Shown: one piece after another, positions 5,063 through 58,207 of the stretch
Numbering within the stretch: position 1 is the first letter of the stretch
How the letters are laid out: each line of letters begins with the position of its first letter
Assembly: GCA_043811995.1 (NCBI GenBank)
Contig: JBDRMP010000055.1
Coordinates: forward strand, 372 to 64,371
From: Planctomycetota bacterium
GTDB taxonomy: Bacteria; Planctomycetota; Phycisphaerae; Sedimentisphaerales; Anaerobacaceae
Length of the DNA stretch: 64,000 bases
Reading direction: 5' to 3'
Notes under the pieces: model-generated
The model's input: only the letters and a program-made list of their open reading frames with translations
Told to the model about the DNA's origin: nothing
The model's database searches: none
Program-made: the position numbers and the translations under genes

Positions 5063-6025
5063 ATGAAACCGGCAGTAAAAATACGGTCTTGGCTTGTGCT
5101 GGTATTTTTCTGTGTGATTTTTGTCGGGGTTGCAAATGTGATGGCGCAGGAAACAGCAGCGGCGGAAGCAAAGACAGGAACAGGGGCATTGGTAGATATG
5201 GCCGCCGTTCGGAGCACGTTTGACAGTGTGAAGGAATTTCTGGCAACCAAAGGCGTGGACTACGGGCTGAAAATCCTTGCGGCGATGGTGATTTTCTTAG
5301 TCGGGAAATGGCTGGCCGGGGTACTCACAAACCTAATCGGCAGGGCCATGACCAAAGCCAAGATAGAGCTGACGCTGGTGAGCTTTGTAAAGAACGTATG
5401 TTATGTAGGTCTAATAGTGTTTGTCGCCATAGCCGCTATGTCGGCTTTGGGGATTCAGACGGCGCAGTTCATAGCTGTAATTGGAGCGGCCGGTCTGGCA
5501 ATAGGGCTGGCATTACAGGGGTCGCTGGCCAACTTTGCCTCCGGGGTGCTGTTGATAATGTTCAAGCCGTTCAAGGTCGGGGATTTTGTCGAGCTGGCCG
5601 GCACAAAAGGGACGGTTCAGGCGATTCACATATTCAACACCGTGCTGGATACCCCCGACAATATCCGGGTCACCATCCCTAATGCCCAGGTTACAGGCGG
5701 AAGTATTTTGAACTATACAATAAACGGCTCGAGGCGCGTGGACCTGGTATTTGGCGTCTCATATGGCGATGATATCAACAAGGCCAAGAAGGTAATCGAA
5801 TCCGTTCTGGCCGGCGACTCGAGGATACTCAAAGAACCTGCCCCAACTGTTGCGGTTTTAGCTCTTGCTGACAGCAGCGTAAACTTTGTGTGCAGGCCGT
5901 GGGTGAAGCCGACTGATTACTGGGACGTTTACTTCGATACTACCGCCAAAGTCAAGCTCGCCCTCGAAAGCAACGGCCTGACGATACCGTTCCCACAAAG
6001 GGACGTGCACATGAAGAACCAATAA
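5063..6025 (+). CDS. mscS: small-conductance mechanosensitive channel (MscS family)
   Basis: GLALQGSLANFASGVLLIMFKPFKVGDFVELAGTKGTVQAIHIFNTVLDTPDNIRVTIPNAQV is the MscS TM3/beta-domain signature. Confidence 0.9.
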   Translation: MKPAVKIRSWLVLVFFCVIFVGVANVMAQETAAAEAKTGTGALVDMAAVRSTFDSVKEFLATKGVDYGLKILAAMVIFLVGKWLAGVLTNLIGRAMTKAKIELTLVSFVKNVCYVGLIVFVAIAAMSALGIQTAQFIAVIGAAGLAIGLALQGSLANFASGVLLIMFKPFKVGDFVELAGTKGTVQAIHIFNTVLDTPDNIRVTIPNAQVTGGSILNYTINGSRRVDLVFGVSYGDDINKAKKVIESVLAGDSRILKEPAPTVAVLALADSSVNFVCRPWVKPTDYWDVYFDTTAKVKLALESNGLTIPFPQRDVHMKNQ

Positions 6026-30484: not shown

Positions 30485-30491
30485 TTTCGTA

Positions 30492-30542
30492 AGCCCCCAA
30501 CTTTATGTTGGGGGTTAACCCCCAGGATAAACCTGGGGGCTT
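30492..30542 (+). promoter_or_regulatory. two tandem, near-identical stem-loops between the alpha and beta subunit genes
   Basis: Hairpin 1: CCCCCAAC (30494-30501), loop TTTAT, GTTGGGGG (30507-30514). Hairpin 2: CCCCCAGG (30519-30526), loop ATAAA, CCTGGGGG (30532-30539). Both have perfect 8-bp stems. Confidence 0.8.
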
Positions 30543-30571
30543 ATGGCGGTTACTACGGTAAAAAGAATGTG

Positions 30572-49268: not shown

Positions 49269-49288
49269 CGTGCCGATTATGCAGCCCG

Positions 49289-49386
49289 GCACTTATTTTG
49301 AGCAATGACTCTCGAATAATTTGCGACCGCCGCTTCGTCAATCAAACTTTATCCCGAATCCGACAATCGCAACTCAAAATAAGTGC
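49289..49386. repeat. perfect 14-bp inverted repeat bracketing the ilvE / polyprenyl-synthase spacer
   Basis: GCACTTATTTTGAG (49289-49302) and CTCAAAATAAGTGC (49373-49386), 70 nt apart. Confidence 0.85.
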
Positions 49387-49390
49387 TGGG

Positions 49391-50257
49391 CTACTTCTCC
49401 TTTCCGTGTGCGTATCGGAAAAATTTGTCTCTTAACCGCCTGGTGATTGGACCGGGCCTTCCGTCGCCGATTACCCGGCCGTCTATCTCCACAACACCTA
49501 TGACCTCCGCCGCCGTCCCTGTTAAAAACAGCTCATCGCTTATATACAAGTCAAACCTCGTCAGGTTCTTCTCTACTGCCTTAATCCCATTTTTGCCCGC
49601 CAGCCGAATCACAACCTCCCTTGTAATGCCCTCAAGCCCGCCTGCTTCGACAGGCGGCGTATAAATGGCGCCCTTGCGGACCATAAAGACGTTGTCGCCC
49701 GTCGCCTCTGCCACGTACCCCTCGTGGTTATACATAATCGCCTCAGGCACGTTGTTATCGAGCGCCTCTATCTTGGCCAGGATATTATTCAGATAGTTCA
49801 TACTCTTGATCTGGGGCGGTATCGCCAGCGGATGGTTACGCACCGTCACCGCGCTGATAATCTTGAGCCCCTTCTCATACAGCTCCTCGGGGTATAGCTG
49901 GATATTGTCCGCGATTATGAACACCGTAGGTGGCTCGCAGGTAAAGGGATTCAGTCCCAGCGACCCAACGCCGCGGGTAACAACCAGCCGGATGTAACCA
50001 TCCACCACGCCGTTGGCCTCGACGGTTTTGTTCAGCGCATCGATAAGCTTCTCCCTGCTCATCGGGATATCGAGCCGAATCCCCCTCGCCGAGTTGTAAA
50101 GCCGCTCTATATGTGCATCAAGCTCAAAGACCCGCCCGTTGTAAACCCGTATTCCCTCGAAGACCCCGTCGCCATACAATAAGCCGTGGTCAAAGACGGA
50201 TATCTTTGCGTCCTGCTCATCTACAAGTTTATCGCCAAGCCAAATTTTCAACGCCAT
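49391..50257 (-). CDS. ilvE: branched-chain amino acid aminotransferase (class IV)
   Basis: ...ISVFDHGLLYGDGVFEGIRVYNGRVFELDAHIERL...; 288 aa, typical short IlvE. Confidence 0.9.
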   Translation of the reverse strand: MALKIWLGDKLVDEQDAKISVFDHGLLYGDGVFEGIRVYNGRVFELDAHIERLYNSARGIRLDIPMSREKLIDALNKTVEANGVVDGYIRLVVTRGVGSLGLNPFTCEPPTVFIIADNIQLYPEELYEKGLKIISAVTVRNHPLAIPPQIKSMNYLNNILAKIEALDNNVPEAIMYNHEGYVAEATGDNVFMVRKGAIYTPPVEAGGLEGITREVVIRLAGKNGIKAVEKNLTRFDLYISDELFLTGTAAEVIGVVEIDGRVIGDGRPGPITRRLRDKFFRYAHGKEK

Positions 50258-50325: not shown

Positions 50326-51021
50326 TTACTTTATCCTGCCGTCCGCCAGCGTTATTATCCGCCCGGCCCGTTTTGCAACCCGCTCATCGTGCGTGACCAT
50401 AACTATGGTCTGACCTGCGTGATTCAACTTTTCGAGCAGTTCCAGAATACCATTTCCCGTCGCAGAGTCAAGGTTGCCCGTTGGCTCATCTGCCAAAAGC
50501 AGCTTCGGCTCATTAACCAGCGCCCTCGCTATCGCCGCCCGCTGCCGTTCCCCCCCGGATAACTGATACGGCTTATGCGCCGCCCTTTCCCCCAGACCGA
50601 CCGCTTCCAGCAATTCTCGCCCTTTTTTCCTCACGGAACCTCGCACAGACAACCAGTGAATCACTCCCGCCGGCACCATCGCGGGCAAAATCACGTTCTC
50701 CAGCACGTTTAATTCGTCCAATAAATGATAAAACTGAAACACAAACCCAACCGTTTTATTGCGGTACCTGTTCAGCTCTCCGCCGCTCATCCCGTCCAGC
50801 TTTCGCCCCTCGAATCGCACGGTTCCTTTATCGGGTCTGTCCAGCGCGCCTAAAATGTGAAGCAGCGTGCTTTTCCCGCTGCCCGACGCGCCCACTATCG
50901 CGGCAAATTCCCCTTTCCTGACCGCGACGTCAGCCCCCTTAAGGACGCGGACCTCAGCCGCACCCATCCTGTAGGATTTATAAATCCCCTGCGCCTCTAT
51001 TATGAAATTACCTTCGCTCAT
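50326..51021 (-). CDS. lolD: lipoprotein-releasing system ATP-binding protein LolD-type ABC ATPase
   Basis: Walker A GASGSGKSTLL, signature LSGGERQR, Walker B LLLADEPTGNLD. Overlaps the upstream permease stop (ATGA). Confidence 0.85.
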   Translation of the reverse strand: MSEGNFIIEAQGIYKSYRMGAAEVRVLKGADVAVRKGEFAAIVGASGSGKSTLLHILGALDRPDKGTVRFEGRKLDGMSGGELNRYRNKTVGFVFQFYHLLDELNVLENVILPAMVPAGVIHWLSVRGSVRKKGRELLEAVGLGERAAHKPYQLSGGERQRAAIARALVNEPKLLLADEPTGNLDSATGNGILELLEKLNHAGQTIVMVTHDERVAKRAGRIITLADGRIK

Positions 51022-52367
51022 AACTGGCTCACCTGCAATGCCTCAATGGGTTTGTTTCGGGCCGCACGAACGCTCGGCAGCGCCGCGCCCGCTAAACACG
51101 CCAAAACCGCACAACCCGCCACTACCAGCACCATTGTCAAATCTATCCTGTGGGGTATCTCTCCTATCGCATAAATAGTCCTGTCCCACAATTGAAACCC
51201 GAACCGCTCATATAACCAGCTCTCTATAGCGTTTATGTCACGCAAAAACAATGCCCCTCCCGCAATTCCCGCCGCCGAGCCGAGAATGCCGACCATCGCC
51301 GCGAAACCCGAAAACAACGCCACAACGTCAAAGCCCGAAGCCCCGACGCTTTTCAGGATGCCGAGGTCCTTGGTCTTGTGACTTACTATCATATAAAAGA
51401 CAACGAAAACTATAAACACCGTCGTAAGCCCCACTAAACCGAACATCACTATCAGCATCGCCTGTTCCTTCTCCATCGCCGCTATAAACTCCCGCCTGTG
51501 CTCCTTCCAGCTTTGCACATTCACCTGCGATAATAATTCCGCGTTTTCCTTTCCCCTCATTTGGTCGCCGAATTTCGCCCACAACAGCCGGACCTTCCCG
51601 CAACCGTCTTCGAGCTTTGCTCCCGGCTTGAACTTTATATGAAGTTGCGACGCCCTCGCTGTCGGCCCATCCATCCCGCAGAGCACCTGCGCATCTTCAA
51701 AGGGAAGATAGACCACCGACGAATCCACTCTCGCCAGTCCGCTTTCCGATGTGTCACTAAAATAAAACGTCTTCGTATTAACCAGGTCCGTCCCCGCCTT
51801 CGCCAGTGCCCCTTTGGCAGTCAATGGAAAACAGGTTACCGTTAACGGCATCGCCTCCGGATTCGGGTCATAATAATATTTTCCGTGCTCATCCCGCCAA
51901 ATCCACATATCCACACCGACTACAAAACCCGGAAGGTTTGCGTTCCCTGTTGGCTCAAACGCGTGCGATACGTCGCCTTTATGGTATTGCAGTGTCCGCC
52001 CAAAACCCGTCGCCTTGCTTTGTCTGGCTGCGTCAATCCCGATTATCTCGACACCTATATTGCGACTGGAACCTTCTCTGCCGACAAGGGCGTAGCTTTT
52101 AATCACGGGTGATACCGCTTCGACAAATTCTTCCGACTCTAAAATCCTCACAAAATCCTCATAATATGGAAAACCAACCAGCGATTCCGTTCCCACCACG
52201 CAGTCGCCGATAAATTCGTGGTTTTTCTTTATGAAGTCCCCGACCAGACCCGTCATCACCGTCATAACGACAACCACGATAAACACACATAGAGCAACCG
52301 CGCCAAGCGCAAGATAACTTATTCTCCGCCGATATAGATAACGTATTGCCAAAATCAGCTTATACAT
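51018..52367 (-). CDS. LolC/LolE-type (FtsX-fold) ABC permease
   Basis: Start trimmed to MYKLILAIRYLYRRRISYLALGAVAL (canonical LolC/E N-terminus). Large periplasmic loop. C-terminal FtsX TM bundle ...KDLGILKSVGAS... Confidence 0.85.
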   Translation of the reverse strand: MYKLILAIRYLYRRRISYLALGAVALCVFIVVVVMTVMTGLVGDFIKKNHEFIGDCVVGTESLVGFPYYEDFVRILESEEFVEAVSPVIKSYALVGREGSSRNIGVEIIGIDAARQSKATGFGRTLQYHKGDVSHAFEPTGNANLPGFVVGVDMWIWRDEHGKYYYDPNPEAMPLTVTCFPLTAKGALAKAGTDLVNTKTFYFSDTSESGLARVDSSVVYLPFEDAQVLCGMDGPTARASQLHIKFKPGAKLEDGCGKVRLLWAKFGDQMRGKENAELLSQVNVQSWKEHRREFIAAMEKEQAMLIVMFGLVGLTTVFIVFVVFYMIVSHKTKDLGILKSVGASGFDVVALFSGFAAMVGILGSAAGIAGGALFLRDINAIESWLYERFGFQLWDRTIYAIGEIPHRIDLTMVLVVAGCAVLACLAGAALPSVRAARNKPIEALQVSQL

Positions 52368-52372
52368 CTGGT

Positions 52373-52857
52373 AAATGTCCAATGTCGAATATCGAACTCC
52401 CAATGTCCAAATGCACGCGGTTATCCTCTTCTCTTTGCTGTTTTCACGCTCGCGGCGAAAATTGCAATAAGCTCGCAATCTTCATTTAACACTTTCGACA
52501 CCATTCCGGTCGGCTTAACCAGCCCCTTTAGTTGAATAATCAAAAGCCATATCCGTGTTTCACGCAATTCTTTCAATGCCACTCGCATCTTATGAATGAA
52601 ATCGCTTCGAGATTCCGCACTTTGTGCTTCTCCGTAATTCGCTGCCGGAGATGTTCCGCTGCGAACAAGCTGATTGCCGATGTGGTTCCCTACTCGCGTG
52701 TTCGGTAAACTTTCAACTATATCAATGACATCAATAGAAAAGTCAATCAACCTTTTTTCTAAATCAAACTTATGATTTCCTTTGCATTTTTCCGTTTCCA
52801 TTTCCTGTGCCACTCTTACTTGGACATTTAATATTTGATATTGGACATTGGACATTT
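52373..52857 (-). mobile_element. IVS-like cassette: four-helix-bundle gene flanked by ~40-nt imperfect inverted arms made of 7-nt repeats
   Basis: Outer 21 nt: AAATGTCCAATGTCGAATATC (52373-52393, plus strand) against the reverse complement of 52837-52857, AAATGTCCAATGTCCAATATC (20/21). The arms extend to about 40 nt (about 32/40). The cassette fills the whole lolE-lolC spacer. Mobility is inferred, not shown. Confidence 0.6.
52421..52801 (-). CDS. four-helix-bundle protein (TIGR02436 / 23S rRNA intervening-sequence protein family)
   Basis: ...FDLEKRLIDFSIDVIDIVESLP...GNQLVRSGTSPAANYGEAQSAESRSDFIHKMRVALKELRETRIWLLI... matches the family consensus (Q..RS.TS..ANY.EA....S..DF..K...A.KE..ET..WL). 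Start placed at METEKC; the track ORF begins 26 codons earlier inside the repeat arm. Confidence 0.8.
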   Translation of the reverse strand: METEKCKGNHKFDLEKRLIDFSIDVIDIVESLPNTRVGNHIGNQLVRSGTSPAANYGEAQSAESRSDFIHKMRVALKELRETRIWLLIIQLKGLVKPTGMVSKVLNEDCELIAIFAASVKTAKRRG

Positions 52858-52859
52858 TC

Positions 52860-54173
52860 CTATTCATAGCGCAAAACATTCACGGGCCTCGTCATCGCAG
52901 CCGATATCGCCGGGAAGCCCGCGCCTATCGCCGCGCCCGCAATCGCCGATAGAACTATCCATACTACCGCAGGCCAATCGACCTCGCTCGGTATCCTGCT
53001 GAACATATACACGCTCGCTTTCCACAATTTCAGCCCGAATATCACCCTTATCCATCCCTCTATCGCGTTGATGTTTTTCGTAATAATATACCCGAGCGCT
53101 GTCCCAATCGCCGCTCCCGTTGTCCCTATGAAGCCGCCAAATCCTATGAATATCGTCGCCACGCTGGCGCTGCCTGCCCCGCAGCTTTTCATAATCGCAA
53201 CGTCCTTGCGCCTCGTCTCTACAATCATATAAAATATGCAAAAAACAAGAAGCACCGCGCTCAAGCTCACCACTCCGAATATCAAAAGCAATACTCCCAT
53301 CTGCTTGCGAATTTCCGCCACGTATCTTGCCTGCATCTGTCTCGCTGTCTCTATCCTCGTCTGTTCTATTTGATATGGCTCCCAGCCGAGGCGCTGCGAC
53401 GCAAACGTCCCCCACACCCCGCGAATCTGCGCAAGCGCAACCTCCGTTTCCACACTGCTTTGAAGCTTTATATGAACCTGTCCGGCAATCGGCTGCTTCG
53501 CTTCCGGATACATCGCTTCCTGCACCCGCTCTATCGGAAGATACACGATTCGCTTATCAAGATAATATACGCCGGTAAAAACAACGTCGGCAATCGTAAA
53601 TTGTATCGTCCTTCGCCTGAATCGCCCGGAACCGTCCTGTTCATTAACTATCGAACCCGTCGAAAGAACGGCTGTCTGTCCAATCATTTGTTCGACGGCG
53701 TTAAAATCGTACTCATCCGTCTTCTCATTCGGCTCTGACAAAACTCCTATACCCACATAACCCACAGAAAAGGGGTCGGAATCCTTTTCTGTCTTACCTT
53801 TCAGCAATGACTTTTCAAATGCCGTCACCCTGCCCTCTTTCTGTAAATCGATACCGCTAATCTCCACCGCTCGAACGTTGCCCCTGCCTATATGCAAAAG
53901 CCCCTGCGCAGACAGCGTTCCCGTTGCTGCTTCAACAGATTTAAGCCCCTCCAGCTCTCTCGTAAGCTCCTGATAATTTTCAATTTTTTCCTGCGGCGCT
54001 ATAACAATGTCGCCTAACGCCTCTGCCGAGCTTCGCTCGAACGTGTTTATAAACCCGCTGAACAAACTGGCGACGACTATCAGAAGTGCACACGATAACG
54101 CGACGGCCGCGACACTCAGCAGCACCATCCTCCTCTTGCTCAGGTACCGCAGCCATAAAAATATCTTCAGCAT
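52860..54173 (-). CDS. LolC/LolE-type (FtsX-fold) ABC permease, second paralog
   Basis: MLKIFLWLRYLSKRRMVLLSVAAVAL...; periplasmic loop; ...KDVAIMKSCGAG... FtsX bundle. Confidence 0.85.
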   Translation of the reverse strand: MLKIFLWLRYLSKRRMVLLSVAAVALSCALLIVVASLFSGFINTFERSSAEALGDIVIAPQEKIENYQELTRELEGLKSVEAATGTLSAQGLLHIGRGNVRAVEISGIDLQKEGRVTAFEKSLLKGKTEKDSDPFSVGYVGIGVLSEPNEKTDEYDFNAVEQMIGQTAVLSTGSIVNEQDGSGRFRRRTIQFTIADVVFTGVYYLDKRIVYLPIERVQEAMYPEAKQPIAGQVHIKLQSSVETEVALAQIRGVWGTFASQRLGWEPYQIEQTRIETARQMQARYVAEIRKQMGVLLLIFGVVSLSAVLLVFCIFYMIVETRRKDVAIMKSCGAGSASVATIFIGFGGFIGTTGAAIGTALGYIITKNINAIEGWIRVIFGLKLWKASVYMFSRIPSEVDWPAVVWIVLSAIAGAAIGAGFPAISAAMTRPVNVLRYE

Positions 54174-54183
54174 CCCTTTTCTA

Positions 54184-54267
54184 CCACGAAGTCACAAAGA
54201 CACTAAGGTTTCTTTTTTATTTTCCTTTTGATTTTTTGCTTCTCTTTGTGACTTGGTGTCTTTGTGG
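54184..54267 (-). promoter_or_regulatory. intercistronic stem-loop with two mutually exclusive helices and an A-rich 38-nt loop (lysS / lolE spacer)
   Basis: H1: 54189-54200 AAGTCACAAAGA pairs with 54243-54254 TCTTTGTGACTT (12 bp, perfect). H2: 54193-54203 CACAAAGACAC pairs with 54256-54266 GTGTCTTTGTG (11 bp, perfect). The two helices share one arm. Confidence 0.7.
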
Positions 54268-55821
54268 TTATTTCCCAAGCGGTTTTAACAACGGAAACAG
54301 CACCACGTCACGAATGCTCGTTGCGCCCGTCAATACCATAACAAGCCGGTCTATCCCTATCCCCAGCCCGCCCGCGGGCGGCATACCGTATTTCAACGCC
54401 GTAACAAAATCCTCGTCCATCGTTGCCATTGTCTCGTGCTGGCCCCGAAGCTGACGCCTGAAATTCTCCTCCTGGACCGCCGGGTCGTTCAACTCCGTAT
54501 AGGCGTTGGCTAATTCCATCCCCGCGATATAAAGCTCGAACCGCTCTGCAATATCCGGCTGCTCCTTCTTCCGCTTTGTCAAAGGACACAGCGCCGCCGG
54601 ATAATCCATCACGAACGTTGGTTTAATCAGGTGCTCCTCGACCGTCTTCTCAAAAACCTCATTTGTTACCACCGCGTCATCCATATTCGTATGCTCAATC
54701 CCAAGCTGACTGGCTTTTGTTCGCACGCTGGCAATATCGCTAATCTCACATTCGCCGTATTCTTTTAATAGCTCCGCGTATTTCGCCCGCCGCCAGGGCC
54801 TGATGAAATCGACTGACATTTCGCCAAATTGGCTTTTGCCCCCTTCACAGTATTTTCCCGCCAGAAGGCAAATCAGCTCCTCCGTCAGGTCCATCATAAT
54901 GTTGTAGTCCGCGTAGGCCTGGTACAGTTCGAGCATCGTAAATTCCGGATTATGCCGCGTGCTCAGCCCTTCGTTGCGGAAGTTGCGGTTTATCTCAAAC
55001 ACCTTTTCCATCCCGCCCACAAGCAGCCGCTTCAGGAACAGTTCCGGCGCAATCCGTAAAAACAAATCCATATCCAAAGTATTATGATGTGTTATAAACG
55101 GCTTCGCCGCCGCGCCTCCCGCTATCGTCTGCATCATCGGCGTCTCGACCTCGACGAAGCCCAAACCCGTCAAAAACTCCCTGATTGTTCGCAGTATGGC
55201 GCTGCGCTTTTTGAATAGTTCCATTACCTCCGGATTTGCCCATAGGTCCACGTATCGCTGCCGGTAACGCAAATCAATATCCGCCAGCCCGTGCCATTTC
55301 TCAGGAGGCGGCATCAGCGATTTGCTCAAAAGCACTACCTCGTCCCCCCATATCGTTATCTCGCCTGTCTTTGTCTTTCCCAGCCCTCCCGACACCCCGA
55401 TTATGTCGCCCACTTCGAGCAGCTTAATAAAATCCCATTGTGCGCTCAGCAAACTCTTGCTCAAACCCGCCTGTATCGTGCCGCTCGAGTTCCTCACCGT
55501 CAGGAAAATCAGCTTGCCTATGTCACGCAGCAGAACTATCCTGCCCGCGCATTTGGCTTTCAGTCCTTCTTCTGCCTTCCCTGCCTGCACCCGCACGTCT
55601 TTAGCGGGTGTCCCCGAGTGTTGCTCCTTTGGTTCTGCAGCAGGGGATACAGATTCGTCCTCCGCGTCTTTGAATCTCGCCTTTATTTCCGCCGCCGGCT
55701 CCGCACCGTCGTATCTGCACCCGTATGGGTCGATTCCCATCCGTTTTATGGCGAGAAGCTTCTCCTGCCTCGCCTGCTCAAGTTTGTCCGTCGTAGGTTT
55801 TGAATTTTGAAATTCGGTCAT
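54268..55821 (-). CDS. lysS: lysine--tRNA ligase (class II)
   Basis: OB anticodon-binding domain, then class II motifs ...FVEVETPMMQ..., ...FRNEGLSTRHNPEFTMLELY..., ...GGLGIGIDRLVM... Start trimmed to MTEFQNSKPTTDKLEQARQEKL; the track start at 55881 overlaps the upstream gene. Confidence 0.92.
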   Translation of the reverse strand: MTEFQNSKPTTDKLEQARQEKLLAIKRMGIDPYGCRYDGAEPAAEIKARFKDAEDESVSPAAEPKEQHSGTPAKDVRVQAGKAEEGLKAKCAGRIVLLRDIGKLIFLTVRNSSGTIQAGLSKSLLSAQWDFIKLLEVGDIIGVSGGLGKTKTGEITIWGDEVVLLSKSLMPPPEKWHGLADIDLRYRQRYVDLWANPEVMELFKKRSAILRTIREFLTGLGFVEVETPMMQTIAGGAAAKPFITHHNTLDMDLFLRIAPELFLKRLLVGGMEKVFEINRNFRNEGLSTRHNPEFTMLELYQAYADYNIMMDLTEELICLLAGKYCEGGKSQFGEMSVDFIRPWRRAKYAELLKEYGECEISDIASVRTKASQLGIEHTNMDDAVVTNEVFEKTVEEHLIKPTFVMDYPAALCPLTKRKKEQPDIAERFELYIAGMELANAYTELNDPAVQEENFRRQLRGQHETMATMDEDFVTALKYGMPPAGGLGIGIDRLVMVLTGATSIRDVVLFPLLKPLGK

Positions 55822-55827
55822 TGGAGC

Positions 55828-55862
55828 TTGTTTCGTATTTAGATATTGGAATTTAGAATTTC
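55828..55862 (-). repeat. heptad-periodic A/T-rich spacer (S41 peptidase / lysS junction)
   Basis: mRNA sense: GAAATTC TAAATTC CAATATC TAAATAC GAAACAA, then GCTCCA ATG. The first two units are an imperfect inverted repeat (11/14) of GAATTTCAAAATTC at 55815-55802, inside the first lysS codons. Confidence 0.7.
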
Positions 55863-58207
55863 TCGGCCTGTGCCTGCTCACGAATCAGCTTGCTCTTAAT
55901 CACTAATATCGCCGTCGTCAATTGCGGGTCCGCCTCAATTGTCTGCTCCAGCGAATGTCTCTTCAATGGCCCTGCGTCAGCGTTGTGCCCCGCCTTGAAA
56001 AGCACCTCATTATCGCGCTGGATGTCGAACATCCTGCGAAGCTCATTGCTGCGCATCTCCACCGTAACATCCGGCCCGACGCCCCAGTCATTCGTATTCT
56101 CCTTTTCAGCCTCATCCCGGCTTTTCACTCGCTGGCCTGACGGCAAATGATAATATGCCATCGTATATTTCAGCTGCGCCCCTTCGCCCGGATAGTGCGT
56201 TATCCCCTGAACCATCCCCTTGCCGTGCGTCCGTTCCCCCACTAACGTCGCTCGCCTGTGAGATGGGTCGGCAAGCGCGCCCGCAACAATCTCCGACGCG
56301 CTTGCAGAACCGGAGTTAACGAGCACCACCATCGGATAGTCCGGATGCGTCCCTTTCTTGTGTGCCGCCGCGTATGTCGGTATCCCGAACCGAGGCCGCG
56401 TTATCACTATCAGCCCGTCATCCAGAAAATCATCCGCTACCTCAACTGCGCTGTCGAAATATCCGCCGGAGTTAAAACGCAAATCCAGAATCAAACCTCG
56501 AATCCCGGCCGCCTCCAGCGAATCCAGCGAGTCCTCAAGGTCTGATGCCGTCTTCTCCGAAAAACCCGTCAGACGGACGTACCCGATTTTTCCCCTCTCA
56601 TCCACTATGTATTGCCACTTCCCTTCGTCGTCTCTCTGCCAGCCGCGAATCGTAGGAACTACTATCCTCGCCCGCGTTATCGTTATATCGCGAGATTGAA
56701 GCTCCCCTTCACGCCTTATCGTCAGCGTCACCTTTGTCCCAGAGGGTCCAGTTATGCTCTTGACCGCGCAGCCAATCGGCATGTCTTTTGTCGTAACCCC
56801 GTCAACCTTCTCTATCACGTCGCCTGCGTCAAGCCCCGAATTATACGCAGGCGTGTCAGGCACCAAGCTCGCTACAGTCAACTGACCCTTCTGCTTGCTT
56901 ATCTCTATGCCGATTCCCGAAAACTCATTCGTCATTGCCTTCTCAAAGTCCGATACGTACGTCGGCCAGACAATTACCGTATATGGGTCCAGCGCAGAAA
57001 ACGATGCCTCCGCAAACTGCGATATTACAACCTCCTCCGGAAACCGCGCACTGGTCAAATTAAGTTCGAGGACCTTCTCGAAAGCTGCTATGTATCTGTC
57101 CTTCCCCGCCCCTTCGGACCAGCTCGTCGTCTCCTGCTCAAGCCCCGAAAGACCCGAACTTAGCTTCGCTATCGCATTCGCATCCGGCACAAAATCCTTG
57201 AAACTCTCTCCTAATGACGCCAGGTTCGGTTCGCTGTTGCTCTTTTGCGTAAGTGTCCCCACCACTTCCGCTAACAATCGGCATCGCCTTATACCCTTCG
57301 ACGCCATTTCACGATAATCTATCTTGTTCACATAATTGAAATTAAGCGCGTCGACCGCTCGCTCAAATATCCTCCGCTTTACCCCGTCAAACCTCTGCCT
57401 GCTTGTCTCGCAGGGACTGTCCTGAAATGAACCCGCTATCTCCGCCTTTTCTATCAGCCGTTCCGCGTAATCCTTATAGCTCTTGTTGTTCGGCTCAAGT
57501 GCCGCAAGCCAGCTATAATACCTTACATAGCTGTCGAGCCACTTGCCTTCGTCCTCGAGCTTTGCCGCCTCCGCCTTGGCGCTCGCAATAGCACCGATGA
57601 CACACGGGTCTGACAATAACGCCTCTTTCTGCTGCTCATTGGTGAATTCGATTGTCCGCGTAATGGCCGCCAATATCGCCGTCGGTCCGGTCGGTGCATT
57701 AACGTCGTTGACGTCGTTTACGTCGTTATATTCTGTGGTGGAGTTAATATCTGCGGGCAGACCTTTCTTTACTCTCTCGAATGCCGCCAATTGCTCTTTG
57801 TAAGACGCCTCACGTCCCGATTCCCTTTCCTTCTGCAGCTTGTCCCACTGCCCAACTATGTCCTTCAGTTCCGAGACCGGCTTCCATCCCTGCCGCTCAT
57901 GGCCCGATGCCTCTATTAGCTGACCTGCCGCGTCGAATTTCCCCTGCTCAATCAGAACGCAGGCCGTCTCAACAATCTCTCGTTCGCTTGACGCGGAATC
58001 GTTCGGCTCGCCTCGATGAATAACGCCCAGACCTTGCGTCTTTCCGGATAGTTCTGCGACCTTTGGAGTGGGCCGACTTTCTCCGACACTAACCGTTGCC
58101 GCGTATGAATAGAAACATCCGCAAGCTGCCGCAAGCAGTGCCAGACATAATACTCGTGCGGCCCACCTCCGCTTTTTTCCTTTGTTCCTGTTATGTTCTG
58201 CTTTCAT
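55853..58207 (-). CDS. S41 family C-terminal processing (tail-specific) peptidase with a PDZ domain
   Basis: PDZ ...VASLVPDTPAYNSGLDAGDVIEKVDG... S41 core ...LILDLRFNSGG... and ...VLVNSGSASASEIVAGAL... (Ser nucleophile context). Large helical N-terminal region and a signal peptide. Confidence 0.88.
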   Translation of the reverse strand: MKAEHNRNKGKKRRWAARVLCLALLAAACGCFYSYAATVSVGESRPTPKVAELSGKTQGLGVIHRGEPNDSASSEREIVETACVLIEQGKFDAAGQLIEASGHERQGWKPVSELKDIVGQWDKLQKERESGREASYKEQLAAFERVKKGLPADINSTTEYNDVNDVNDVNAPTGPTAILAAITRTIEFTNEQQKEALLSDPCVIGAIASAKAEAAKLEDEGKWLDSYVRYYSWLAALEPNNKSYKDYAERLIEKAEIAGSFQDSPCETSRQRFDGVKRRIFERAVDALNFNYVNKIDYREMASKGIRRCRLLAEVVGTLTQKSNSEPNLASLGESFKDFVPDANAIAKLSSGLSGLEQETTSWSEGAGKDRYIAAFEKVLELNLTSARFPEEVVISQFAEASFSALDPYTVIVWPTYVSDFEKAMTNEFSGIGIEISKQKGQLTVASLVPDTPAYNSGLDAGDVIEKVDGVTTKDMPIGCAVKSITGPSGTKVTLTIRREGELQSRDITITRARIVVPTIRGWQRDDEGKWQYIVDERGKIGYVRLTGFSEKTASDLEDSLDSLEAAGIRGLILDLRFNSGGYFDSAVEVADDFLDDGLIVITRPRFGIPTYAAAHKKGTHPDYPMVVLVNSGSASASEIVAGALADPSHRRATLVGERTHGKGMVQGITHYPGEGAQLKYTMAYYHLPSGQRVKSRDEAEKENTNDWGVGPDVTVEMRSNELRRMFDIQRDNEVLFKAGHNADAGPLKRHSLEQTIEADPQLTTAILVIKSKLIREQAQAEKF

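Follow-up and report, generated by a model that had tools for sequence, protein, structure and literature searches.

The intervening sequence (IVS) of the Coxiella 23S rRNA gene, 428 nt in length, contains tandem heptamers and an open reading frame (ORF), and has a 28-bp terminal stem that is cut by RNase III; the ORF, which specifies a protein of the same family as that dealt with here, has been reported to be decaying and untranslated (PMC4990558). The homopentamer Xcc0516 is cited in the same article. The family in question, annotated as 'four helix bundle protein' (TIGR02436), is very large and its function is unknown.

Correia elements are non-coding sequences of ∼100–150 bp with conventional, non-periodic inverted repeats and a duplicated TA target; CREE/nemis are co-transcribed, and their RNA forms hairpins. 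Filamentous cyanobacteria reportedly carry tandem heptanucleotide arrays between genes, the STRR heptamers attributed to Mazel and co-workers (1990), with CCCCAGT, TTGGTCA and CAACAGT said to be the classical units. According to PMC2649163, the Correia elements of Neisseria (CREE/nemis) can bind RNase III and be cleaved or protected, and so control adjacent genes. In Geobacter metallireducens, 'paired global-regulator binding sites' (classes 1–3) are opposite-strand pairs of 3–5 tandem repeats of 7–9 nt; they lie between operon genes (proBA, moaA-mosC) and are interpreted as DNA sites for unidentified regulators of the IHF/HU type (PMC2700814).

A four-helix-bundle gene with heptad arms between two permease genes

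The window, by which we mean the whole 64-kb stretch of DNA analysed, contains a four-helix-bundle (4HB) gene which, together with two inverted arms made of 7-base repeats, lies exactly between two transporter genes. In the order of transcription, the features are:

52860..54173, minus strand: permease A, LolC/E-like, upstream of the cassette (Pfam FtsX and MacB_PCD)
52819..52857, minus strand: left (5′) arm, 39 nt (inverted-repeat scans, heptad parse)
52802..52818, minus strand: purine-rich spacer of 17 nt (TAAGAGTGGCACAGGAA) from the left arm to the ATG of the ORF (read from the sequence)
52421..52801, minus strand: 4HB protein gene, 126 aa, TIGR02436/PF05635, Avd/23S-IVS-protein family (HMM profiles, fold)
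52373..52411, minus strand: right (3′) arm, 39 nt (inverted-repeat scans, heptad parse)
51018..52367, minus strand: permease B, LolC/E-like, downstream of the cassette (Pfam FtsX; start ATG 52367-52365)
50326..51021, minus strand: LolD-like ABC ATPase gene (Pfam ABC_tran), overlapping the end of permease B by 4 nt

Re-reading of the sequence confirmed every coordinate of a preliminary description in which the gap between the permeases was taken up by an ORF and two arms. The left arm begins 2 nt beyond the stop codon of permease A (TAG 52862-52860), whose 3′ end (...TATGAATAG) is kept in all relatives, and the right arm is separated from the ATG of permease B by 5 nt (ACCAG). The 17-nt spacer probably serves the 4HB gene as its translation-initiation region. 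A site scan revealed neither promoter-like nor terminator-like sites within the cassette. The window as a whole contains no tRNA and no Rfam family at gathering score according to the respective scans, and PADLOC gave no defence-system match. Against the NCBIfam lolCE model, permease A scored 150.6 bits and permease B 136 (equivalog cut-off 362), while the ATPase scored 258 bits against LolD (cut-off 308). Since all three are below the equivalog cut-offs, their naming stops here at 'LolCDE-like', which corrects the earlier designation as two lol permease genes.

The 4HB protein

The curated cut-offs of both family models were passed (TIGR02436, 77.9 bits, cut-off 24; PF05635, 49.3 bits, cut-off 33.8, E = 6.6e-13), in agreement with the initial placement of the ORF in the TIGR02436/Pfam 23S_rRNA_IVP family. 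The size of this family is considerable: 9,126 clusters at 50% identity match the protein at E ≤1e-3, and a scan of IMG/VR detected no member of this particular 4HB subfamily. Looked up as an identical sequence, the 126-aa protein gave no record; a homology search then assigned the DNA to a Planctomycetota MAG. A phmmer search against the PDB found 2RLD (E = 1.2e-14). The AlphaFold monomer model (pLDDT 90.3) has helices at residues 14–30, 36–60, 65–92 and 98–124, and when submitted to Foldseek it matched 2RLD (E = 1.5e-5, TM 0.78/0.90), 2GSC and the Avd structures 4DWL and 8UBE. Two of these solved relatives, 2RLD and 2GSC, appear among the matches with five chains each (A–E).

Sequence and predicted folding of the arms

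The left arm reads as A, followed by the heptads AATGTCC AATGTCC AATATCA AATATTA AATGTCC and then AAG. The right arm reads as TTT, followed by GGACATT GGGAGTT CGATATT CGACATT GGACATT and then T; its reverse complement thus contains the five heptads AATGTCC AATGTCG AATATCG AACTCCC AATGTCC. An inverted-repeat search delimited arms of 41 nt that are 80% complementary (52370-52410 and 52820-52860), and a second scan found the outer 21 nt to be 95% complementary, values which match the 20/21 and ∼32/40 counted originally. At the thresholds of the second scan (a perfectly matching 9-nt seed, minima of 20 nt for arm length and 75% for complementarity, and a loop of up to 800 nt) only three inverted repeats were recovered from the whole window, the cassette arms being one of them, and the window holds a single copy of the cassette. 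When positions 52355-52875 of the minus strand were folded with RNAfold, the long-range stem was closed in the MFE structure and in the centroid structure alike (−145 kcal/mol, z −3.2, 0/100 shuffles), so that the long stem looping out the ORF that had been proposed for these arms is indeed predicted. Joined through a short loop, the two arms gave −39.4 kcal/mol (z −7.3). The central heptads of both arms remain unpaired in this copy, forming an internal loop; the stem is therefore interrupted, which was counted against an explanation based on an RNA stem.

The permease junction in related genomes

With permease B as an anchor, 80 orthologous loci were collected, 69 of them genome loci with a scorable junction. 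The empty site that the preliminary description had proposed to look for was found: in 42 of the 69 scorable loci, from related Sedimentisphaerales/Phycisphaerae genomes, the junction measures only −1 to 12 nt. Of the 69 species-level relatives whose junction could be scored, 66 lack the 4HB gene; the closest relative (L010), in which a TAA is followed directly by GTG, is among them. Parts of the cassette occur at the same place in other relatives. ORF-less hairpins with periodic arms, which fold well, occupy the junction in L018/L021, L078 and L084, and a scar of the right arm is left in L034. The GGCACAG motif of the spacer is retained in the ORF-less L018/L021, and the right-arm core AGTTCGATATTCGA is common to four filled sites, the ORF-less L021 and the scar of L034; with one to four base changes, it is also present in the other filled sites and in L018. 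To judge from the junctions compared, the cassette is a discrete unit derived from insertion.

An ordinary host gene tied functionally to the Lol-like transporter, with the inverted repeat serving as a local attenuator or terminator, would agree with the conserved position of the 4HB gene and with the strong purifying selection that it undergoes in several lineages (see below). This explanation is extremely improbable given the 66 relatives that lack the gene, the closest included, the presence of the same kind of cassette beside unrelated genes (RND pumps, permeases, gas-vesicle and cas genes), and a cassette devoid of any terminator-like site. The distribution of the cassette over the host tree is patchy. 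To produce it, the cassette must have been lost precisely many times or gained repeatedly at a single site, and this was counted against the explanation that we favour. A stem that preserves translational coupling between permeases A and B was considered and not adopted: empty sites of the same clade mostly have GTG or TTG starts abutting the stop codon, while filled sites mostly have ATG, a pattern from a small sample that points, if anything, to a loss of coupling.

Armed cassettes beside other genes

Among 70 metagenomic homologues (52–82% identity), 57 are flanked by inverted heptad arms with a score of at least 15, a value reached by none of 180 controls of shifted geometry and above the maximum of 14 obtained with shuffled sequences. 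Autocorrelation of the arms at lag 7 was 0.66, compared with ∼0.25 at other lags. Arms paired better with the opposite arm of the same cassette than with those from elsewhere (21.8 versus 12.9), and arm-to-arm pairing was present in the MFE fold of 49 of the 57 cassettes. Most arms contain 3–4 periodic units. The genes on either side tend to be co-oriented with the cassette gene (42/46 upstream and 42/46 downstream, ∼91%). Neighbours of cassettes of this kind include genes for RND pumps, permeases and gas-vesicle proteins as well as cas genes, some copies lying between cas2 and cas1 and others among genes of apparent defence islands. The ATG of the 4HB gene is inside the left arm or no more than 12 nt from it in 27 of 42 cases, and most family members have a Shine-Dalgarno heptad, AACAAGG, together with the ATG within that arm. 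L002 contains a further 4HB gene, unrelated to the first, with arms of its own (29 nt, 90% complementary). Thirteen distant members located on plasmids of cultured bacteria were inspected. Inverted heptad arms are clear in 11 of them, from cyanobacteria and the Chloroflexota organism Chlorohelix; of the remaining two, the arms are complex in Treponema and missing in Bernardetia. Inverted heptamer arrays were present on both sides of the gene in all ten cyanobacterial plasmid 4HB genes inspected. As a sequence pattern, these counts establish the arms as a family-wide rule for such 4HB cassettes. rRNA was found at none of 20 related loci. The cassette thus belongs to a widespread and apparently undescribed class of insertions that share the construction of rRNA intervening sequences. 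In the literature searched, mostly without subscription journals, the general arm rule was not found stated; an earlier description is possible.

The arms could act on DNA, as terminal inverted repeats or as a cruciform or single-stranded hairpin recognised either by the 4HB protein or by a recombinase provided in trans; the RNA stem would then be a by-product. Many copies have perfect arms, as do young transposon copies (e.g. L090, 38/38, and L091, 33/33), miniature ORF-less derivatives occur, and conservation extends to the sequence of the arms besides their pairing; moreover, arm mismatches show no strand asymmetry, the number of heptads varies (L005 versus L006), and arms may be duplicated (L181 has two tandem left arms). 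However, when the outer ends of 40 well-armed cassettes were searched for a target-site duplication, direct repeats were no commoner than expected at random, and no transposase or reverse transcriptase is specified by the ten flanking ORFs checked (∼12 kb). The 91% sense orientation and the Shine-Dalgarno sequence and ATG in the left arm are, besides, features of a transcript, and in the homologous rRNA elements it is the RNA that undergoes processing (PMC4990558). An action on DNA is thus considered possible, if unlikely. In L096, a Y1 transposase gene (IS200/RAYT-like) is separated by 80 nt from a heptad hairpin without an ORF; since this gene has its own, different REP-like repeats, the adjacency was taken as coincidence.

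Age and selection

When the cassette was compared with its orthologues, the pS of the 4HB gene tracked that of the flanking genes, and because its synonymous divergence matches theirs the cassette here must be old. The dN/dS of the 4HB gene was 0.04–0.11; its dN was lower than that of the permeases and, in more distant pairs, lower than that of the ATPase as well. The two arms together are 81–94% identical to those of orthologous cassettes, while flanking synonymous sites are near-saturated in the more distant pairs. By these measures, both the protein and the arms are under purifying selection. As to horizontal spread versus vertical descent, the 4HB and host trees agree on sister pairs and disagree at deeper nodes, with only 126 residues and saturated sites behind the comparison. 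The L002 cassette is much closer than the L002 host genes, and the correlation of distances was only r = 0.38. The suggestion that the cassette might be mobile finds support as to its origin, empty sites indicating an insertion, and none as to active mobility in this genome, where the copy is old, vertically inherited and alone in the 64-kb window.

Selection on the arm sequence is also what would be expected if the heptads were iterated binding sites, on RNA or DNA, of a pentameric 4HB protein, forming a self-regulating cassette in which the stem and RNase III are secondary. The tandem 7-nt unit is kept across phyla, its sequence changing together with the gene; the protein is homologous to Avd of the ribonucleoprotein of diversity-generating retroelements (DGR; Foldseek 4DWL, 8UBE); and the five chains of 2RLD and 2GSC, as well as the homopentamer Xcc0516, point to a pentamer. 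Recognition of the arms by the protein is nevertheless putative, and ORF-less hairpins persist without an adjoining cognate gene. A match of five heptads to a pentamer was considered and dropped: periodic runs mostly have 3–4 units rather than five, which leaves 'one heptad per protomer' unsupported. We consider this alternative quite unlikely.

A model for the cassette

Taken as a whole, the data are probably best explained by an armed 4HB cassette that is an old insertion and whose ORF is looped out by an RNA stem. Positions 52373-52857 of the minus strand are a resident copy of a compact class composed of a promoter-less TIGR02436/PF05635 gene and inverted arms of ∼4–5 tandem heptads. This is in essence the IVS-type cassette resident in an mRNA operon that was put forward at the outset, and it has gained from the empty sites, the ORF-less hairpins and scar, the arms found elsewhere and the anatomy of the Coxiella element. 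The cassette was inserted exactly between stop and start codons that abut in relatives, and has since been inherited with the operon, selection keeping protein and arms. It is presumably transcribed within a LysRS-permease A-4HB-permease B-ATPase message. Once the right arm has been made, the arms would pair, and an interrupted stem of ∼39 bp would loop out the ORF, its base lying 2 nt from the stop codon of permease A and 5 nt from the start codon of permease B. Such a stem would be a duplex of the RNase III type, as in the rRNA versions, and might be cleaved. With or without such a cut, the folded stem would shield the host operon from the insert and keep translation of the 4HB gene low. The 4HB protein, which is homologous to the RNA-binding DGR factor Avd, probably recognises the heptad arms.

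No sign of selection for the sense RNA was found, G·U and A·C mismatches on the sense strand being equally frequent (75 versus 70), and a check for covariation between copies, as originally proposed, gave nothing above shuffles for eight orthologous arm pairs. The pairing of orthologous arms reflects sequence conservation, which is no less compatible with recognition of a specific sequence than with a generic duplex. The ATG of this lineage is outside the arm, and the argument of translational masking is therefore weaker here than family-wide. Masking of the ribosome-binding region of the downstream permease by the stem, as had been supposed, finds no support: no recognisable Shine-Dalgarno sequence precedes permease B, and any effect would have to be on the accessibility of its start codon.

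A broader proposal, which we judge rather unlikely, is that armed 4HB cassettes are new autonomous selfish elements found across phyla, in which a pentameric protein would recognise the arms and promote spread or retention with neither a conventional transposase nor target duplication. Such elements, or their remnants, would then also account for the rRNA intervening sequences, for the Geobacter 'paired sites' and for some of the tandem heptamers of cyanobacteria. Possible routes of spread would be hairpin DNA or an RNA intermediate, namely a stem-loop released by RNase III in an Avd-like partnership with a reverse transcriptase acting in trans.

If 4HB genes generally travel as armed cassettes between operon genes, their neighbours say nothing about their function. 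The rule, if true, bears on published inferences drawn from guilt by association, such as the listing of 4HB genes as CRISPR-associated (PMC3936711), and it would tie together rRNA intervening sequences, DGR Avd proteins, cyanobacterial heptamer repeats and the Geobacter paired sites. At this locus, an insert of this kind has evidently been tolerated for long in the operon of an essential type of transporter, which suggests that its polar effects are limited by some inherent means. Armed copies are available in cultured, transformable hosts, e.g. Nostoc punctiforme PCC 73102 (NPUN_RS35560 on pNPUN02, with perfect arms of (AATTCGC)n); Dolichospermum flos-aquae CCAP 1403/13F and Anabaena cylindrica PCC 7122 are further cultured bacteria with perfect-armed copies.

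Comparison with known systems

STRR and 4HB cassettes have in common the presence of heptamer arrays in cyanobacteria, where ten out of ten plasmid 4HB genes inspected are bracketed by them; the classical STRR units, as they are reportedly given, differ from the heptads of the plasmid 4HB arms, and a link between STRR and 4HB genes was not found stated in the literature searched. Correia elements resemble the cassette in being small inverted-repeat elements that adjoin genes (PMC2649163). Unlike these elements and MITEs, the cassette has a conserved gene of 126 aa, arms of tandem heptads, and no target-site duplication above chance in 40 cassettes. The Geobacter paired sites display the same pattern as the ORF-less hairpins at the permease junction, a likeness of pattern only; the pairs inspected are ∼100 nt apart with no gene inside, and the article makes no link to 4HB genes or IVS (PMC2700814). 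Avd shares superfamily and fold with the 4HB protein (4DWL, 8UBE, TM ∼0.7–0.8), with an identity of only 15–17%; it sits in the DGR ribonucleoprotein with a reverse transcriptase, whereas no reverse transcriptase domain was found in the operon genes and ten more ORFs around the cassette (∼12 kb).

The closest likeness is to the ORF-bearing 23S IVS of Coxiella burnetii and Leptospira (PMC4990558). Both are ∼430–490 nt in size, have terminal inverted repeats forming a stem of 28–40 bp with a PF05635 4HB ORF in the loop, contain tandem heptamers in the 5′ arm region (GACAGAT three times in Coxiella) and lack an enzyme of their own. RNase III cutting, which has been shown for the rRNA elements, would apply to the cassette by analogy. 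The cassette differs in its location, between protein-coding cistrons for FtsX-type permeases rather than in an rRNA helix, and in its ORF, which is under strong purifying selection (dN/dS 0.04–0.11) whereas that of Coxiella is reported to be decaying.

Cassette anatomy in the window

The window carries, between two permease genes (A and B), a gene for a four-helix-bundle (4HB) protein flanked by two inverted arms built of heptads. The cassette and the surrounding genes are arranged as follows.

Features of the operon and cassette (window positions)
54268-55881, minus strand, LysRS gene
52860-54173, minus strand, permease A gene, FtsX/MacB-type
52819-52857, minus strand, left arm, 39 nt
52421-52801, minus strand, 4HB ORF, 126 aa, matching TIGR02436/PF05635
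52373-52411, minus strand, right arm, 39 nt
51018-52367, minus strand, permease B gene
50326-51021, minus strand, ABC ATPase gene

Within the 492 nt from the stop codon of A to the ATG of B, 2 nt precede the left arm, a 17-nt spacer separates that arm from the ORF, 9 nt separate the ORF from the right arm, and 5 nt follow the right arm. In a repeat search the arms spanned 41 nt with 80% complementarity (95% over the outermost 21 nt). Coordinates, repeat search and fold bear out the preliminary description of the ORF, the arms and their gap-filling position; the stable long-range stem that it proposed is predicted for the entire region by the MFE and centroid folds alike (z -3.2), and the isolated arm pair folds at -39.4 kcal/mol (z -7.3). 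Its 'lol' gene names hold only approximately, all three transporter genes scoring below the NCBIfam equivalog cut-offs.

The 126-aa product matches the Bacteroides protein 2RLD, a PDB entry with five chains, and its model (pLDDT 90) is a four-helix bundle, placed by Foldseek beside 2RLD, the Bordetella phage retroelement protein Avd, and Xcc0516 (2GSC). The dN/dS of the gene is 0.04-0.11, and the permeases have a higher dN than it does, as has the ATPase in the remoter pairs (related loci L002 and L005); the low values for the 4HB gene indicate a constrained, presumably expressed protein. Its synonymous divergence tracks that of the flanking genes.

Synonymous divergence (pS) between the window and related loci
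L001: 4HB 0.37, flanks 0.34-0.44
L015: 4HB 0.64, flanks 0.62-0.64
L002: 4HB 0.68, flanks 0.71-0.76

The non-coding arms are 81-94% identical across lineages even in pairs with saturated synonymous sites, and are therefore likewise under purifying selection.

The same junction in relatives

A permease B profile scan, with one genome per species, rendered 80 orthologous loci in Sedimentisphaerales/Phycisphaerae MAGs, 69 with a scorable junction. The empty site sought among relatives in the preliminary description was present in 42 of the 69, where the two permease genes range from a 1-nt overlap to a gap of 12 nt; these included the closest relative, L010 (permease B 86% identical), where GTG directly follows TAA. 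Among these species genomes only L015 and L032 had a 4HB gene at the junction, which was also occupied in the metagenomic lineages L001, L002-L004, L005-L009 and L179-L187. Gene-less hairpins with periodic arms, folding at -24 to -53 kcal/mol, stood at the exact junction in L018/L021 (AATATTG/AATAATG), L078 (CCAAATC) and L084 (GGAATGT), and L020 and L087 had long junction spacers containing periodic or inverted repeats. In L034 a scar alone remains, AGTTCGATATTCGACATT, an exact match to part of the window's right arm. The arm core AGTTCGATATTCGA is exact in four filled sites, L021 and the L034 scar, and differs at one to four bases in the remaining filled sites and L018; the copies bearing it therefore go back to a single insertion. 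The hairpins of distant clades, with quite different units, look like separate events.

Filled sites are scattered among empty ones in a neighbour-joining tree of A+B, which requires precise losses on several occasions, more than one gain at this site, or homologous recombination that swapped filled and empty alleles; the last, if it is the route, would run through the gene ends at the junction, which are very conserved. The 4HB and host trees agree on sister pairs and disagree at deeper nodes, and in L002 the cassette is far closer than the host genes.

In the window's own clade (L010-L019, the window, L001, L184 and L015), permease B starts with GTG or TTG abutting the upstream stop at 7 of 8 empty junctions, and with ATG at 3 of 4 filled ones. 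This difference, in a small and not phylogenetically independent sample, hints that the insert weakens A-B translational coupling.

Arms across the 4HB gene class

L002 has a second 4HB gene upstream of permease A, with its own arms (29 nt, 90% complementary) of different sequence; tblastn with the window protein as query gave no match to it. Homologues 63-66% identical lie between unrelated genes (RND pump/AP endonuclease, xanthine permease/aminotransferase, histidine kinase/GvpL), their arms perfect or nearly so, e.g. AATATCCAATATCCAACACTCAATATCCAATGTCCAAG at 38/38. A metagenome scan provided 80 further 4HB loci, of which the 70 with sufficient flank were scored: arms reached at least 15 in 57, shuffles at most 14, and shifted-geometry controls along the loci exceeded 11.5 in 0 of 180 cases. 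The arm period is a sharp 7 nt (lag-7 identity 0.66 vs ∼0.25), AATATCG, AATATCC, AATGTCG and AATGTCC being the most frequent heptads, and a central heptad, AACAAGG, provides the Shine-Dalgarno AAGGA; the ATG falls within the left arm or ≤12 nt from it in 27 of 42 cassettes. The median distance is ∼30 nt from the upstream stop to the left arm and 14 nt from the 4HB stop codon to the right arm, with arm-to-arm pairing in the MFE fold of 49 of 57 cassettes. Cassettes are co-oriented with the upstream neighbour in 42 of 46 cases and with the downstream one in 42 of 46. No rRNA occurred at the 20 related loci checked.

Plasmids of cultured organisms carry distant members (33-40% identity) with pure tandem arm arrays: (AATTCGC)n in Nostoc punctiforme PCC 73102, (AATTCAA)n in N. 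flagelliforme and Aulosira, (TAATTCG)n in Dolichospermum, (CAAGTCG)n in Nostoc ATCC 53789 and (AAATCGT)n in Planktothrix. Arrays of this kind also occur in Gloeocapsa, Anabaena cylindrica, Pseudanabaena and Chlorohelix (Chloroflexota), and complex arrays surround the Treponema 4HB gene; at that of Bernardetia an inverted pair was not clearly seen. Inverted arms of tandem heptads generally characterise TIGR02436 genes across several phyla. On the plasmids of L195 (Nostoc sp. TCL26-01) and L197 (Anabaena cylindrica PCC 7122), an armed 4HB gene of opposite orientation separates cas2 from cas1.

L196 and L199 likewise have armed 4HB genes, flanked there by a Swt1-type HEPN gene and a DUF1156 gene. 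Heptad number is unstable, since a single 4HB gene of L181 is preceded by two left arms in tandem (1387-1500), L005 and L006 differ in the left arm alone, by a single AATGTCC, and L021 has lost one unit per arm relative to L018.

Other repeats and possible relics

The 94-nt LysRS-permease A spacer of the window (54174-54267, minus) holds a hairpin (-20.5 kcal/mol, z -3.1) whose arms, CCACAAAG ACACCAAG TCACAAAG / CTTAGTGTCTTTGTGACTTCGTGG, have an 8-nt period. It may be another gene-less relic; in L002-L004 this junction is occupied by the second armed 4HB cassette. Directly 3′ of the S41 peptidase stop (55815-55853, minus), the stretch AATTCTA AATTCCA ATATCTA AATACGA AACAAGC TCCAATG resembles a lone degenerate left arm that includes AACAAG, the canonical unit, and the start CCAATG, which now opens the LysRS gene; a partner arm was not found. 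In L001, the closest cassette-bearing relative, eight tandem 81-nt units (1646-2260) lie in frame within the LysRS gene (714 aa vs 483-537 elsewhere), each opening with the left-arm-like heptads AATAACG AATGTCC AACGTCC AATGTCC AATGTAG AAGTAAG.

At L096, a gene-less heptad hairpin (5125-5240, -44.7 kcal/mol) retains the lost gene's ATGTCGAAG start; 80 nt downstream of the hairpin is a Y1 (IS200/RAYT-like) transposase gene (5308-5980), after which come that gene's own REP-like tandem repeats of 67 nt. L106 has an Acido-Lenti-1 RNA (RF01687, 1053-1097, 45 bits vs a gathering score of 37) ∼240 nt upstream of its 4HB gene. The window further contains a 27-nt near-palindrome, TAAGCCCCCAACTTTATGTTGGGGGTT / AACCCCCAGGATAAACCTGGGGGCTTA (30490-30543), and a 20-nt inverted pair (49283-49392, 95% complementary) between polyprenyl synthase and aminotransferase genes.

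Possible mechanism

The empty sites, the same arms elsewhere and the anatomy of the Coxiella IVS support the core idea of the preliminary description, an IVS-like cassette resident in an operon, and we are highly confident of the identity of the cassette and of its origin by insertion. A classical transposon is opposed by the absence of target duplication at the cassettes, of any transposase or reverse transcriptase among ten neighbouring ORFs scanned within ∼12 kb, and of phage copies of the window's 4HB subfamily in IMG/VR.

A role at transcript level is favoured by the strong sense orientation of the cassettes, by a cassette in which no promoter-like or terminator-like site was found, by the Shine-Dalgarno and ATG inside the left arm of most members and, by analogy, by the experimental precedent of rRNA versions cut by RNase III. 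Selection of the stem merely as RNA is opposed by two results: G·U-type and A·C-type mismatches in the sense RNA are about equally frequent (75 vs 70), and the covariation test proposed in the preliminary description found the arms of the eight orthologous copies conserved instead. The main rival, that the arms work on DNA, is considered unlikely. The favoured reading, which combines an insertion-derived cassette, an RNA stem, RNase III and heptad recognition, is on balance the probable one. The cassette would probably be co-transcribed and its arms paired in RNA; the stem might, more tentatively, be cut by RNase III, and this cutting, or the fold itself, would insulate the operon and hold down 4HB translation; least securely, the Avd-like protein might recognise the heptads. 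Any functional effect of the cassette on the permease genes is putative.

Relation to known elements

No paper describing 4HB genes as heptad-armed cassettes was found in an incomplete coverage of the literature. A survey of cas loci lists 18 genes of the family as CRISPR-associated, e.g. one between cmr3 and cmr2 (PMC3936711); promiscuous insertion may account for this published association. In the Geobacter metallireducens genome, opposite-strand pairs of tandem 7-9-nt repeat sites between operon genes were taken as regulator sites (PMC2700814), and these resemble the gene-less hairpins at the permease junction. The 428-nt IVS of Coxiella 23S rRNA has a 28-bp terminal stem, inside which RNase III cuts, a gene of the same family, and three or four tandem GACAGAT heptamers 5′ of the ATG (PMC4990558). 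The window element shares this anatomy but is located in mRNA, and its ORF is constrained while that of Coxiella is decaying.
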